DNA of 55,589 nt from an uncultured Candidatus Saccharibacteria bacterium (GCA_964511435.1 CAZEFH010000005.1:1-55589), one strand, 5' to 3'; shown: positions 4,354 through 44,188, counted from the stretch's first letter. A program made the numbers and translations. Notes: generated by a model not told the origin, from the sequence alone.

Positions 4354-4884
4354 TTAATCAATAGCGTCAGCAAGCTTCCCCTTTACGGACTCGCTCGCTT
4401 TAATGAAGGTATCTTCGACGGTAATCTTATCTTTCTCAATCGAAATAATTTGCCCAAACCCAATGGCAAGCTCTTTAAAATTACCTGATAGTAGCGGTGG
4501 ATTTACATATATTTTATCAATTGTCAGGGCCTTCATATTTAGAGTATAGTCGCGGCACTTACCGAGATACTGGCCTGAAACAGTGTAAACTTTATTTCCC
4601 GAAATACGAGCTTCCTTCTCAAGAACTTGTTTGATACGGACTATTTCATCAAGTTCGCCAAGCGACTCATATGATGCTATCAAGTAGAAATCAGAAGTGA
4701 TACCCAAAAGATCCTTCTCTGGAAGTGCTTTCAGATTCTTTTTCCCGAATCCTTCACGAACAAGAATTCCGACTAACTTGCCAGTATCAGGATCAATAAC
4801 CATATTTTCCATCACACCAACGAGGGCCTTCTCTTTCTTGAGCAAGACCGGCTTGAGGCGTAACTCTGAAGCAAACTTTATCAT
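4354..4884 (-). CDS. PRC-barrel domain protein
   Basis: Two repeats of G.v.dmviDp.tGkl / V.tvsGqyLGk..Dy pattern. Confidence 0.75.
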   Translation of the reverse strand: MIKFASELRLKPVLLKKEKALVGVMENMVIDPDTGKLVGILVREGFGKKNLKALPEKDLLGITSDFYLIASYESLGELDEIVRIKQVLEKEARISGNKVYTVSGQYLGKCRDYTLNMKALTIDKIYVNPPLLSGNFKELAIGFGQIISIEKDKITVEDTFIKASESVKGKLADAID

Positions 4885-5009
4885 AGATACATTATAGCAA
4901 AGACGAACTGGTCCCGAACCCCCGTAGGGGCCGGGACCTGCCTAGGCCCTGGGTGTTTAGCCCCGAGTTTTGGACTTCGTGGGGGTCTAGCCCACGCGAT
5001 TTTGGCCAA
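4881..5009 (-). CDS. Putative 42-aa small ORF (TTG start), GC-rich island 1
   Basis: SD GGAGGTGAT 7 nt upstream; MAKIAWARPPRSPKLGAKHPG...; runs through a hairpin, so weak. Confidence 0.3.
   Translation of the reverse strand: MAKIAWARPPRSPKLGAKHPGPRQVPAPTGVRDQFVFAIMYL
4910..4938 (-). terminator. GC-rich hairpin at 3' end of island 1
   Basis: GGTCCCG-aa-CCCC-cgta-GGGG-c-CGGGACC; no long U tract. Confidence 0.5.
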
Positions 5010-5028
5010 AAGCCGGATCACCTCCGAG

Positions 5029-5064
5029 TCAGAGACCGTTCTCGTGCTCTTGCCAGAGACTCAC
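5029..5064 (-). CDS. Putative 11-aa micro-ORF MSLWQEHENGL (GTG start)
   Basis: SD GGAGGG 6 nt upstream, just after previous stop. Confidence 0.25.
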   Translation of the reverse strand: MSLWQEHENGL

Positions 5065-5082
5065 TTCGGTCCCTCCCCTCGG

Positions 5083-5181
5083 CTAGTCGCCGATGTCAGT
5101 GCAACCGCTGTCCCTCTCCGACGGAGGGGTAGGCTGCGGCATTCCTGGGGGAATACCCCAGCCAGGCCTCTTCGAAGGCAT
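5083..5181 (-). CDS. Putative 32-aa Pro-rich small protein
   Basis: SD GGGAGGTGA overlaps stop of upstream ORF; MPSKRPGWGIPPGMPQPTPPSERDSGCTDIGD. Confidence 0.45.
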   Translation of the reverse strand: MPSKRPGWGIPPGMPQPTPPSERDSGCTDIGD

Positions 5182-5185
5182 CGCG

Positions 5186-5362
5186 TCACCTCCCGAACTT
5201 GCCGTTCTCAGCGGTGACCGTATAGCCACCTTGCGGATGACGAGTGAAGCCGTAGCTTGCCTTGCCGTTACCTTCAGACGGCTCGTGATGGTCCTGGCGA
5301 CGCCCAGTGGCGTCACGGGCCAGTCTCATCGACTGACCATTTTGCACAGTACGACTCTGCAT
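5186..5362 (-). CDS. Putative 58-aa small protein
   Basis: SD GAGGGG directly after stop of 104-aa ORF; MQSRTVQNGQSMRLARDATG...GYTVTAENGKFGR. Confidence 0.5.
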   Translation of the reverse strand: MQSRTVQNGQSMRLARDATGRRQDHHEPSEGNGKASYGFTRHPQGGYTVTAENGKFGR

Positions 5363-5372
5363 ACGTCCCCTC

Positions 5373-5687
5373 TCATCCGACGGCCATTCGCAAACGGAAG
5401 TCCGGTGTGATGATCAGCAGCCCATGTGGAAGCAGGTAACAACGCTTCTCGCTCTGATGAGCTGCTATGACAACCACACTGTGACCCCTCAGACTCACGG
5501 GAAGCTTTTTCATCTCCTTGTGGTCAAGATGGAACTTGTCCGGACCACACATCTCAGCAGTGACGCTTGTGATCCTTCGGGGACAACCAATCAGTTTGAC
5601 CTGATATGACTCCTCCCACAGCTTGGGATCAGCCCGTCGGGTCAGATTCATCCGATACAACAGTGACAGTTGCAGGCGAACTAGCAC
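5373..5687 (-). CDS. Hypothetical protein, 104 aa, first gene of GC-rich island 1
   Basis: GTG start with SD GGGAGGTG at 7 nt; AT-rich promoter-like region upstream. Confidence 0.6.
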   Translation of the reverse strand: MLVRLQLSLLYRMNLTRRADPKLWEESYQVKLIGCPRRITSVTAEMCGPDKFHLDHKEMKKLPVSLRGHSVVVIAAHQSEKRCYLLPHGLLIITPDFRLRMAVG

Positions 5688-5770
5688 GATGGACCACCTC
5701 CCAGGTACTCGTCAATGACATCACTTATAGTTTATAATCATTTCATAGATAAAGTCTAGAAAAGGAAATT

Positions 5771-7117
5771 ATGAATCCAGAAATTTTCAAAGCGTATGAC
5801 ATTCGAGGAATATATCCAACTGAGCTAAATGCAGAGGACGCAAAAAATATTGCTATGGCCTATGCCAGTTGGCTAAAACCAAAGAAAGTAGCCCTTGGTC
5901 GTGATGTCCGACTTTCTGGACCAGAACTTTGGCAGGCTGCGGCGGACGGACTTACTGAAATGGGTGTTGACGTTGTCGATATCGGCGTTATCAGTACAGA
6001 TATGCTATATTTTTCTGTCTCAAACTACGGATTTGACGGAGGGATTACACTATCTGCTTCACACAACGCCAAAGAGTACAATGGAATGAAGATGGTGCGG
6101 GAAGAAGCTCGTCCTATTTCAATTGATTCTGGTATAGCAGAAATCCGTGACCTTGCAATGCAGGGTGAATTTACGCCAGCCGAGGCTAAGGGCTCTATCA
6201 CAAAACTAGAAATTCTTGCTGATTACATTTCCAAGATGACATCATTTGTTAAGACAAATAAAATCAAGCCACTAAAAGTACTCGCAAACCCAAATTTTGG
6301 GGCCGCTGGTGCTGCTATTGAGAAATTAGCCGAAATATACAGTACAGAACTAACTAAACTAAACTTTGAACCTGATGGTAATTTTCCCAAGGGCAAGCCA
6401 GACCCGATGCAAGCCGCCGTTCGTGCCGAGACTGAAGAAATAGCAAAAAGCGGACACTTTGATTTCACCGCAATCTGGGATGCTGACGCAGACAGATGTT
6501 TCTTTTTCGATGAAAAGGGCAATTTTATACTGCCTTACTATATAACTGGTCTAATGATGGATTACTTTCTTGAGCAATACCCAAAAGTCACATTTGTAAT
6601 TGATCCACGTCTTGTCTGGATGCCTGAAAAAATTGCCTCCGAAAACACTGCACAAATCGCCATCAACAAATCTGGTCATTCATTTATAAAAGAGCGTATG
6701 CGTGATGAAGACGCGATATTCGGAGCCGAAACATCAGCGCATTACTACTTCAGAGACCTATGGTACACAGATAATGGGATGGTACCTTTCGTGATTATGC
6801 TTGAACTCGTATCGCAAAGTGATGTACCACTATCCGAGATGGTTAAAAAATATCAGAACATGTCATATGCGATAGAGGAAACCAACTTTATAGTTGAGAG
6901 TGTTCCTGACACTATTGAAAAAGTGAAGGCCGCCTTCCCAGGCGGAACAGAAAGCAATATTGACGGTATCTCAATCGAGTTTTCCAACTGGAGAATGAAT
7001 CTTCGTGGTTCCAATACTGAACCTGTGATAAGATTAAACATAGAAGCAAAAACGAAGGAACTGGCGGAAATAAAGCTCGCCGAACTCACGGAGGTAATAG
7101 GTGGGACTAAGGCATAA
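5771..7117 (+). CDS. manB: Phosphomannomutase/phosphoglucomutase
   Basis: IFKAYDIRG, catalytic SASHN, metal loop DADADR, GAETSAH, RGSNTEP. Confidence 0.95.
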   Translation: MNPEIFKAYDIRGIYPTELNAEDAKNIAMAYASWLKPKKVALGRDVRLSGPELWQAAADGLTEMGVDVVDIGVISTDMLYFSVSNYGFDGGITLSASHNAKEYNGMKMVREEARPISIDSGIAEIRDLAMQGEFTPAEAKGSITKLEILADYISKMTSFVKTNKIKPLKVLANPNFGAAGAAIEKLAEIYSTELTKLNFEPDGNFPKGKPDPMQAAVRAETEEIAKSGHFDFTAIWDADADRCFFFDEKGNFILPYYITGLMMDYFLEQYPKVTFVIDPRLVWMPEKIASENTAQIAINKSGHSFIKERMRDEDAIFGAETSAHYYFRDLWYTDNGMVPFVIMLELVSQSDVPLSEMVKKYQNMSYAIEETNFIVESVPDTIEKVKAAFPGGTESNIDGISIEFSNWRMNLRGSNTEPVIRLNIEAKTKELAEIKLAELTEVIGGTKA

Positions 7118-8990: not shown

Positions 8991-9305
8991 ATGAAGAGTC
9001 ACCCGTGGCTATACATCATTCTTCCTGCGTTCCTGGGGGTCATCGTGGCCCTTGCAGGAGCAAGCTGGGTCAGCAACGCCTACAGCCCGCGTAAGTGGGC
9101 GGAACAGGCACCGCTCAACCACTCTGTGGTCGGAAGTGCTGACCCATTCTGGACCAGGCTCGATGATGCTATCAAGTCATCGGATCGCGCCGGAGTTCCA
9201 ATGGACGAGTTGGTGACCATCATTCAAACGCGTCCTGATAATCCCAACCACGACCTGGTCCCGATACCCTACAACCAGTGGGTATCGGGCCAGTATGATC
9301 ACTAG
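8991..9305 (+). CDS. Hypothetical membrane-anchored/secreted protein, 104 aa
   Basis: N-terminal hydrophobic segment LYIILPAFLGVIVALAGASW; SD GGAG; GC-rich codons. Confidence 0.7.
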   Translation: MKSHPWLYIILPAFLGVIVALAGASWVSNAYSPRKWAEQAPLNHSVVGSADPFWTRLDDAIKSSDRAGVPMDELVTIIQTRPDNPNHDLVPIPYNQWVSGQYDH

Positions 9306-12425: not shown

Positions 12426-12833
12426 ATGAACACACCTAGCCTTGTCTTGGTGGTTTGGGTTTTCTACCACCAGGTCACGAACGATGCTGATCGTGGAGTG
12501 ATTCGCGCGAGGATTCTCAGTGGCCTCCAGACCATCTTCGGCATCGCGCCGGAAAACGTGGAGGTACATTTCCAGTCCTTGGAGCTACCTGAAGCTGGAT
12601 TCCGCTTCCACATTGAACACAGCAACTTGGTTTCGGCCGAGCTAGCTGATTCCATCAGTCAGAATCTGACTCGATCTGGGATCCGTTGGTGTGCAACACA
12701 ACTCGACGAGACAACCTGCTTCGAGTCGTCCTGCACTGTCGGTCCGATCACCGGGATCGCCCCCATCGGGAAGACCTTCAGCTTCCCGATGACGTCCGGT
12801 GAGGCACCGCTCGAAGCGTTCAGCTGCATCTAG
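12426..12833 (+). CDS. Hypothetical protein, GC-rich island 3
   Basis: Own TATAAT at 12376-12381, SD GGAGTGAG, downstream GC hairpin 12853-12884; tautomerase-like segment IFGIAPENVEVHF. Confidence 0.7.
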   Translation: MNTPSLVLVVWVFYHQVTNDADRGVIRARILSGLQTIFGIAPENVEVHFQSLELPEAGFRFHIEHSNLVSAELADSISQNLTRSGIRWCATQLDETTCFESSCTVGPITGIAPIGKTFSFPMTSGEAPLEAFSCI

Positions 12834-42635: not shown

Positions 42636-42801
42636 AAATTCATTCTCTCATTATTGTTCAAACATGGCGAGGACTAAAGATTCAGGCCAGTATATTATAA
42701 ATGACCATAACAAACGAAAAGCGGCCCAGACGCAATTGCATCTTGGCCGCATGACCCTTTGGTGGCCCGGTCCTGTCACGGGTCCACCACCTACAGTGAG
42801 C

Positions 42802-43128
42802 CTACCTCGGGAGCCAGAACGCAAGTTCCTGAAGCAGTCGCTTCTTCGGCATCGCGCCGACGACCTTCTTGACGACTTTGCCATCGGCGAAAACCAGGAC
42901 GGTCGGTATCGACAAGATGTCGTACTTTCCGGCGATACCTGGCTCGAGGTCTACGTTCAGTCGCCCAATACTGAGATCGGGGTACTCCGTGGCAACTTCC
43001 CGCCACACCGTCTCCATCATACGGCACGGGCCGCACCAGGGTGCCCAGGTGTCGAGGACGAAGGGTTTCTCACGCGTGGCGGTCAATTCGTCGAAGTTGT
43101 CAGCCGTGACCTCCGTGATGCTATTCAT
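42802..43128 (-). CDS. trxA: Thioredoxin (start re-assigned to ATG 43128)
   Basis: WAPWCGPC, LNVD, SIPTV cis-Pro; SD GGGAGGT. Confidence 0.95.
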   Translation of the reverse strand: MNSITEVTADNFDELTATREKPFVLDTWAPWCGPCRMMETVWREVATEYPDLSIGRLNVDLEPGIAGKYDILSIPTVLVFADGKVVKKVVGAMPKKRLLQELAFWLPR

Positions 43129-43168
43129 GCAGTTCACCTCCCTCTTCTTACTGAGAGTTCATCGGTTG

Positions 43169-43297
43169 TCAGTACTCCTCGGGCTCGAAGCGCTCCTGCA
43201 GTTCTTGCCACTTCGCCACCAAGGTGCGCCAATGCGGCAGAACGAAGGCAACTGCGATGAGGCCGCAGACAATCCACGGTGTCCAGCTAGTCTTCAT
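43169..43297 (-). CDS. 42-aa small membrane protein (below ORF-track cutoff)
   Basis: MKTSWTPWIVCGLIAVAFVLPHWRTLVAKWQELQERFEPEEY; start overlaps upstream ORF end. Confidence 0.65.
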   Translation of the reverse strand: MKTSWTPWIVCGLIAVAFVLPHWRTLVAKWQELQERFEPEEY

Positions 43298-43547
43298 CTG
43301 GTTCCACCGTCCTCCAGCAGAAGCCCTCGCTTCCACTGAATTCGTCGGATTTGCCCCGCTTGTCCTTGAGGTCCATCATGTCGGAGAAGACCTCAACGGT
43401 GGCGCCCGAAGGCACGCCAAGCTCGTCAGCGAGCCTCCGCAGTGAACCAGGACCATCGCTGTAAACGACGCCACCGTCAGTGAAGCACATTGCTTGTCGC
43501 ACGCCGTTAGCGAGTGTCGCTACCAGCCAGAACAACTTCGCCTGCAT
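43287..43547 (-). CDS. Hypothetical protein, 86 aa
   Basis: SD AAAGGAG; operon position; GC-rich codons. Confidence 0.7.
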   Translation of the reverse strand: MQAKLFWLVATLANGVRQAMCFTDGGVVYSDGPGSLRRLADELGVPSGATVEVFSDMMDLKDKRGKSDEFSGSEGFCWRTVEPDED

Positions 43548-43562
43548 GACCCGCTCCTTTCA

Positions 43563-43814
43563 CTACTCGGTGAGACCTACGTAGGCCCACCTGCCATAGT
43601 CTCCGAAGAACTTCCAGCGGCCGTCAGACAGCCGGATAGGAGCCCTCGGCGACACGTTGTAGAACGAGTACATACCGGTCTCGGTAAAGAAGGTTATGGT
43701 ACCCTTCCCCATGTAGTCCACCCTGACATCGACGATGGTACCACGGTACCGCAACCGATTCTCAAAGGTGTACAACTGGAGACCGGTGAAGCCTTTCTTC
43801 TTGATTGCCTTCAA
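43563..43814 (-). CDS. Hypothetical beta-rich protein, 83 aa (TTG start)
   Basis: SD GAGGAGG; operon position. Confidence 0.7.
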   Translation of the reverse strand: MKAIKKKGFTGLQLYTFENRLRYRGTIVDVRVDYMGKGTITFFTETGMYSFYNVSPRAPIRLSDGRWKFFGDYGRWAYVGLTE

Positions 43815-43839
43815 CTCGGCCTCCTCTCACTGTGCGTAG

Positions 43840-44085
43840 CTACTGCTCCTTGATCGTGCTGACGCAGTCGGCGCAGACCGGGCGGTTCTTGATCTTCGTG
43901 GTCTCGACGTCCGTAGCACCACAGATGGCACACGAATCCTTGTGTTTCGTGAGGATGATGCGCTCGCCTTCGACGAAGATGGCAACCGGGTCCTTGACGT
44001 TGATGCCAAGGGTCCGGCGCAGCTCCATCGGGATGACGATCCGACCGAGGTCGTCGACACGACGAACGATTCCTGTATCATGCAT
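43840..44085 (-). CDS. abrB: AbrB/Abh-family transition-state regulator with C-terminal Zn ribbon (start re-assigned to 44085)
   Basis: DTGIVRRVDDLGRIVIPMELRRTLGI closely matches Bacillus AbrB N-domain; CAIC...CADC; SD AAGGAG. Confidence 0.9.
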   Translation of the reverse strand: MHDTGIVRRVDDLGRIVIPMELRRTLGINVKDPVAIFVEGERIILTKHKDSCAICGATDVETTKIKNRPVCADCVSTIKEQ

Positions 44086-44188
44086 GTAGCATTCTCCTTC
44101 GGTATCCCAGTTGTGACGGTACATTTTGCCGGTTCATCTTGAACTGACATATAGGGCCTGAGCTTCAGGCTCGCTATCTCACTTCAAG

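Follow-up and report, generated by a model that had tools for sequence, protein, structure and literature searches.

A candidate fast-evolving orphan gene and its structured 3' region with a conserved terminal RNA domain, ahead of the rpsF-ssb operon of a Candidatus Saccharibacteria bacterium

Introduction

The closest described counterparts of the locus reported here are ORFan genes for small proteins that carry a structured 3' untranslated region (UTR) and an intrinsic terminator, translationally coupled polycistronic operons, the STAB-SD mRNA stabilisers of Bacillus, and the sponge RNA RosA. The locus lies on the minus strand, directly ahead of a PRC-barrel gene, in a stretch of 55,589 nucleotides (nt) from an uncultured Candidatus Saccharibacteria bacterium (GCA_964511435.1 CAZEFH010000005.1:1-55589; hereafter the window), the genome of which, labelled G000, comprises 732 kb at 43.9% GC. 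A description made from the DNA alone (the sequence-only reading) had presented it as a chain of five progressively smaller open reading frames (ORF1 to ORF5), each behind its own Shine-Dalgarno (SD) sequence, and had proposed either a polycistronic micro-peptide operon or an RNA displaying many anti-SD-binding sites, a ribosome sponge.

Like ORFan small-protein genes, the locus appears to have its own promoter, an SD sequence, a single ORF of about 100-120 amino acids (aa), a GC-rich terminal hairpin just before the next promoter, and a very fast turnover of its protein. It differs from them in a 3' UTR that in G000 would be unusually long, about 490 nt, and in that the last 140 nt, which form several hairpins, are shared across genera, unlike the coding part. 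With translationally coupled operons it shares, in G000, the geometry of stop, SD and start and an ATGA overlap with the next gene, whereas the cistrons here are tiny, unconserved, without coding signatures and placed in strongly folded RNA. STAB-SD elements, for example that of the cryIIIA leader, lie near the 5' end of an mRNA and block 5'-to-3' decay. The locus resembles these in having an SD-like motif with long complementarity to the 3' end of 16S rRNA and no conserved start codon after it, but its motif sits in the 3' domain, where a predicted hairpin pairs it, and would bind the 30S subunit only hypothetically. Since a STAB-SD is by definition 5'-proximal and non-initiating, the locus does not qualify as one: the conserved non-initiating motif stands near the other end of the unit, about 110 nt short of its 3' end, and the SD at the 5' end precedes the start of ORF1. 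RosA is a sponge RNA that titrates the C-rich small RNA (sRNA) RoxS (PMC8216469). The likeness lies in G-rich, SD-like words in the unit RNA that could pair with C-rich partners, and the difference in that here there is no conserved array of sites, no enrichment of such words and no known partner, and the transcript of the congeners is protein-coding.

Results

With moderate confidence, we read the locus as one fast-evolving orphan gene with a long structured 3' region behind it, which ends in a conserved RNA domain and a terminator. An independent minus-strand transcription unit would open with a promoter and a short leader carrying an SD sequence; its one translated gene, ORF1, would encode a lineage-restricted small protein evolving too fast for orthologues to be recognised between species. 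A long, GC-rich, structured 3' UTR would follow, ending in a domain of five hairpins, the last of which would stop transcription just ahead of the promoter of the leaderless PRC-barrel/rpsF/ssb mRNA. ORF2 to ORF5 and their apparent SD sequences would be by-products: a purine- and GC-rich tail of CCUCC/GGAGG-type helices would create GGAGG words, with starts and stops falling nearby by chance, and the conserved GGAGGUGAUC would serve the structure of the 3' domain or its recognition, and not initiation. Coordinates of all features are collected in Table 1.

Conserved ends and a non-homologous interior

The unit was compared among G000, its two congeners G001 and G002 (genus g1), one species of a second genus, g2 (G003), and a metagenomic variant of the latter (L025). 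A GC-rich spacer occupies the same site in G001, G002 and G003; it is missing from 7 other genomes of the family. The unit is syntenic, with conserved ends and a non-homologous interior: in a sensitive nucleotide comparison of G000 with G001 and G002, homology is confined to the leader up to and including the start codon (nhmmer E 1.6e-8) and to the final ~140 nt, of which 139 nt align with G001 at 71% identity; the ~650-nt interior is not homologous. For scale, the PRC-barrel proteins of G001 and G002 are 85% identical to each other and 66-67% identical to that of G000.

The interior of the two congeners is a single ORF of 120 aa in G001 (L002:1126-1488) and 112 aa in G002 (L003:1544-1882). 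The products are 39% identical (E 4e-21), the alignment has gaps of 3 and 21 nt, and the mismatch frequencies at the three codon positions are 0.46/0.39/0.65. The ORF is under coding constraint and, on this pattern, is a real protein gene; its protein evolves very fast, at 39% identity against 85% for the adjoining PRC protein. A profile search of 1.84 billion representative proteins retrieved one further family member (P0032), and no match to the family was found in Pfam, PHROG or PADLOC. The AlphaFold model of the congeners' protein (alpha/beta, with a predicted local distance difference test score, pLDDT, of 68) retrieved no convincing match in the PDB using Foldseek (E at least 0.16), and its best Z using VIA was 5.2, which is below noise level. 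Conserved G-CC-D and W-VP motifs can be seen among the G001, G002 and P0032 proteins.

The ORF1 product

ORF1 begins at the homologous position, behind a homologous SD, between the same neighbours as the ORF of G001 and G002. Its GC content by codon position (0.61/0.39/0.59) is like that of real GC-rich genes, and the RNA of ORF1 folds no better than shuffled sequences (z -1.1). Direct comparison of the ORF1 product with the congeners' family yielded only a weak, colinear resemblance, namely a BLASTP alignment with 24% identity over 72 aa (E 0.26), hhalign E values of 0.11 and 0.21, and a summed global alignment score of z 2.0 against shuffles (p 0.036); a six-frame hmmsearch of the region using the family profile retrieved nothing. 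Given that the family has fallen to 39% identity where the PRC-barrel proteins are at 85%, an orthologue in G000, where they are at 66-67%, is expected to be unrecognisable. On these grounds we consider ORF1 probably a diverged orthologue of the G001/G002 protein. As far as it took ORF1 for a real small-protein gene, the sequence-only reading is plausible.

Searches for other homologues of ORF1 returned self matches only among 5.8 billion proteins and noise only in six frames of 400 genomes of the phylum; the ESM Atlas gave no usable result. A frameshifted pseudogene of the congeners' gene was considered and rejected on the empty six-frame hmmsearch. An apparent QLDE...C motif shared with a 135-aa GC-rich orphan elsewhere in the window (12426-12833) is not significant.

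The lack of any homologue of the interior in the searches made, among them phage and plasmid DNA, is what would be expected if the region were non-functional accessory DNA, that is, a decaying GC-rich insertion of foreign or mobile origin whose ORFs, even ORF1, all arose by chance. GC-rich ORFan islands are indeed common in the G000 genome, and both strands of the region carry long ORFs. However, a GC-rich unit with the same ends is kept at this site across two genera, its version in the congeners is under coding constraint, and ORF1 retains the conserved leader, SD and start position along with coding-like codon-position GC. Genomes as small as 0.73 Mb, moreover, rarely retain 0.8 kb of junk. 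We therefore regard this explanation as improbable.

The chain of ORFs

All five minus-strand ORFs described in the sequence-only reading are present, as are the SD-like motifs in front of them, although the distance from the GAGG core to the start is 6-11 nt and not the 4-7 nt claimed. The stop of ORF2 does fall within the third SD and that of ORF5 does overlap the PRC-barrel ATG, as ATGA; the gaps from each stop to the next start are 4-19 nt. The region has 52-62% GC, against ~40% in its flanks, and is present in the genome as a single copy. No internal repeats or module duplication of note were found in G000. On the plus strand, a 105-aa ORF (5093-5410) was dismissed for having no SD.

Such an arrangement could be taken for a translationally coupled operon in which five small proteins or peptides are each started from an SD of their own at the preceding stop. 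For a statistical appraisal, a chain was defined by GGAG or GAGG 4-10 nt ahead of ATG, GTG or TTG, an ORF of at least 10 aa, and a next start no more than 25 nt past the preceding stop; we would like to note that this rule is post hoc, having been devised for the most extreme place in the genome. Under it the locus scores 4, as ORF5 lies 1 nt outside the spacing limit. Chains of at least 4 arose in 0/1000 dinucleotide shuffles in one run and 3/3000 in another, and among 7128 real 850-nt sections of the genome a chain of 4 was found in only two, both over this locus. The claim that five SDs are unlikely by chance thus stands for the rarity of the chain but not for the SD words themselves, as the 18 SD-like 4-mers compare with 13.6 +/- 3.6 in shuffles, a count matched by 145 of 1000, and so show no enrichment over composition. 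Because the locus was chosen as the most extreme and the genome has about 170 GC-rich sections, the excess of the chain is real locally but only marginal genome-wide.

Comparison with relatives speaks against the coupled operon. The ~335-nt stretch containing ORF2, ORF3 and ORF4 has no counterpart in G001, G002 or G003, and since the closest relatives hold a single ORF in the unit, the proposed five-cistron micro-peptide operon is not supported, failing by the standard for refutation that the sequence-only reading had itself set. The frame of ORF5 is off by one in G001 over conserved nucleotides of the 3' end. ORF2 is an orphan, its protein search having returned self matches only, and the stretch had no match in Pfam, PHROG or PADLOC. 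Codon-position GC is not coding-like in ORF2 (0.61/0.54/0.61) or ORF3 (0.55/0.67/0.70). The stretch is predicted to fold into successive stable hairpins whose unpaired probability is near zero (minimum free energy, MFE, z -3.3), the second to fourth SDs and their starts lying mostly within predicted stems, and is best read as a structured 3' UTR. What remains in favour of coupling, apart from the rarity and geometry of the chain, is a 19-aa ORF of genus g2 that stands behind GAGGUGA, has synonymous changes at both of its two differences and, like ORF4, ends at a UGA inside the first hairpin (H1) of the 3' domain. Taken together, these observations leave the coupled operon very unlikely in our view.

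The conserved 3' RNA domain

Of the two kinds of conservation that the sequence-only reading had asked to be compared in homologues, the congeners' ORF shows that at protein level and the 3' domain, on which ORF5 lies, that at structure level; ORF2 to ORF5 are lost in relatives. The 3' domain covaries. Of its alignment cells, 96.5% are compatible with the pairing, against 84.9 +/- 3.1 in shuffles (0/500 reach the observed value) and 33-56% in slid controls, counts that come from four sequences only and from an alignment fitted to the model. In the third hairpin (H3) both sides have changed in 5/6 pairs. H1 to H3 were detected in genus g2 using a covariance model, R1 (E 0.002-0.01), and between G003 and L025, which are 93% identical, scattering the observed substitutions at random gave a worse consensus energy in 475 of 478 placements. 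The RNAalifold count of broken pairs was uninformative, as it was zero in the controls too. By these comparisons, the base pairs of the domain appear to be kept through compensatory changes across species.

The domain is unique in the genome, where RNase P RNA and tmRNA were located elsewhere. No Rfam family reached its gathering score, and up to E 10 only noise of 14-17 bits was seen; R1 retrieved only terminator-like noise over 28 genomes of the order. Pattern scans found two true homologues, both of g2, along with six chance matches in metagenome contigs and, with exact motifs, only G001 and a G003-like record in genome contigs. R1 did not recognise the 3' region of G002 (L003:1886-2094), which is longer, is very strongly folded (z -4.5), and seems to hold two degenerate copies of an SD-like/CGAAGU/CUAAC module in place of the canonical domain.

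An RNA-level conserved element is thus present and contains the strongest SD look-alike of the locus, the GGAGGUGAU site, which is predicted to pair with a conserved CCUCU. In G001 and G003 no start codon follows GGAGGUGAU; together with the frame shift in G001, this indicates that ORF5 and its apparent SD are features of RNA structure. The terminal hairpin is strong and covaries with that of G001, which has a clear U run, and we infer that it would terminate the transcript and that the tail would stabilise it.

The site could also be the functional part of the locus, in a regulatory non-coding or dual-function RNA that presents the conserved, hairpin-gated GGAGGUGAU(C) as an SD mimic, either binding the 16S 3' end as a decoy or landing pad for the 30S subunit or titrating a C-rich small RNA; a ribosome terminating at the ORF end just upstream may open it. 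Both GGAGGUGAU and its CCUCU partner are invariant in four sequences (G000, G001, G003 and L025), the GAU just after H1 included, while the adjoining H3 covaries freely; the result is complementarity to the usual 16S 3' end over 9-10 nt. With only 6 copies of the 9-mer, the motif is rare in this genome, and an ORF ends 6-25 nt upstream of it in all five sequences. The g2 unit (L018:1000-1480 in G003; L025:200-690) is 93% conserved with structure-preserving changes, its flanks diverging, and looks non-coding: its longest ORF is broken in L025, 4/4 differences being nonsynonymous, plus a stop. Sponge RNAs for C-rich sRNAs are known, RosA with RoxS being one (PMC8216469). Against this, only one or two sites are conserved and form no array, the number of SD-like words does not exceed what composition gives, the exact motif is missing from G002, no partner sRNA is known, and the congeners' ORF is clearly under protein constraint; the complementarity, furthermore, assumes the usual 16S 3' end, as the G000 assembly lacks its own. 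We consider an SD mimic unlikely. The proposed ribosome sponge is not supported, with conservation restricted to the 5' SD and the GGAGGUGAU site of the 3' domain. A more specific version, in which the domain is a hairpin-gated "super-SD" whose CCUCU/GGAGG helix is melted by a finishing ribosome, exposing 9-10 nt that capture a 30S subunit or a C-rich sRNA, seems to us quite unlikely.

Promoters and boundaries of the unit

The promoter and ATG of the PRC-barrel gene mark the downstream boundary of the unit. In 11/11 genomes of the family, TATAAT stands 6-9 nt ahead of the PRC-barrel ATG and there is no SD; the gene therefore appears to be leaderless with its own promoter, and if so, the region upstream belongs to another unit, which has to end right ahead of the PRC-barrel gene. 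The -10 element is often TGnTATAAT or TTATAAT across the family genomes (L014-L023). The PRC-barrel gene, which is followed by rpsF and ssb on the minus strand, would be a conserved leaderless mRNA in Saccharibacteria, heading the rpsF-ssb operon.

On the upstream side, the neighbour is a phosphoglucomutase (PGM) gene. The promoter block of the unit is conserved in G001 and G002, and from it we infer the minus-strand promoter in G000, at which transcription would begin. The conserved block 5709-5745 is largely the divergent PGM promoter. That promoter overlaps the putative promoter and leader that the unit has on the opposite strand, giving a face-to-back divergent pair that is kept in the three congeners. 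In genus g2 the unit is preceded by a clear promoter with an extended -10, TTGTCA-17-(TG)GATAAT, which is conserved although the flank upstream of it diverges.

Table 1. Features of the locus, its surroundings and the GC-rich ORFs of the genome (positions in the window unless a contig is named)
Feature	Position	Strand	Remarks
ORF1	5687-5373	minus	GTG start, 104 aa
ORF2	5362-5186	minus	ATG start, 58 aa
ORF3	5181-5083	minus	ATG start, 32 aa
ORF4	5064-5029	minus	GTG start, 11 aa
ORF5	5009-4881	minus	TTG start, 42 aa; listed as 46 aa from GTG 5021
5' leader with first SD, GGGAGGUGG (5702-5694)	5688..5717	minus	homologous to G001/G002 leaders
G000-specific GC-rich structured stretch with ORF2 to ORF4	5038..5372	minus	
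Conserved 3' RNA domain	4897..5037	minus	five hairpins
H1	5035-5031 paired with 5025-5021	minus	CCUCU-type strand with GGAGG
GGAGGUGAUC, apparent SD of ORF5	5025-5016	minus	one strand of a conserved hairpin
H2	about 5014-5005	minus	tetraloop-closed in relatives
H3	4996-4991 paired with 4983-4978	minus	covaries
CUAAAC-presenting hairpin	4963-4961 paired with 4953-4951	minus	
Terminal GC-rich hairpin	4938-4927 paired with 4921-4910	minus	followed by U-rich tail
Putative unit promoter	5724..5760	minus	TATAAA 5736-5731 or TATAAG 5729-5724, weak -35
PGM promoter	5709-5738	plus	TCGTCA-18-TATAAT; called by promoter scan
PGM gene	5771-7117	plus	
PRC-barrel extended -10, TGCTATAAT (4899-4891), and ATG (4884-4882)	4882..4899	minus	downstream boundary of unit
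GC-rich ORFs within the window	8991-9305, 12426-12833, 42664-44150		
GC-rich ORF islands	C15:8-15 kb, C18:6-10.5 kb, C13:12-13.6 kb, C2:78-79 and 90-92 kb, C1:96-100 kb		

GC-rich orphan genes in the genome

In the G000 genome, 45 of the 733 ORFs of at least 90 aa have a GC content of at least 55%, and these are clustered in islands. Of ten that were tested, 8 have no Pfam family, and the remaining two encode an ATP-grasp enzyme and an ECF-type sigma factor. The locus belongs to this GC-rich, mostly orphan class, and its high GC is not special to it. The GC-rich ORFs look like an accessory gene pool, possibly of foreign origin.

Discussion

Several points weigh against a single orphan gene with a structured 3' region. 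A promoter scan of G000 called no minus-strand promoter for the unit, and the U tract of the terminal hairpin is weak in G000, its tail being only moderately U-rich, and was not called by a simple scan. The resemblance of ORF1 to the congeners' protein is not significant, and its AlphaFold model is poor (pLDDT 47) and uninformative. The unit of genus g2 may be non-coding, which would fit a reading that puts the RNA first better. The chain of ORFs is statistically rare, and a tail that merely stabilises the transcript does not explain the exact conservation of H1 and its 9-10 nt. Finally, no RNA or Ribo-seq run was found to contain the locus, and with it no evidence of transcription or translation; the single run found, of DNA from the low-depth source sample, holds a copy at depth 2 that is identical to the window, with no variants.

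Comparison with three relatives dissolves most of the apparent operon, and the locus is in this sense cautionary: where a structured RNA is rich in GC and purines, its SD-like words and its start and stop codons can together mimic an operon convincingly. To our knowledge, almost no RNA biology has been described for the phylum Saccharibacteria. What remains of the locus is modest: an undescribed, very fast-evolving family of small Saccharibacteria proteins, and an undescribed structured RNA domain of ~140 nt, found in two genera and carrying an invariant sequence complementary to the anti-SD. If the "super-SD" were real, the locus would be a dual-function RNA coupling translation of an orphan gene to an output at the level of ribosomes or RNA, beside a ribosomal-protein operon; and should the 3' domain bind ribosomes or an sRNA, the phylum would gain a new regulatory RNA.

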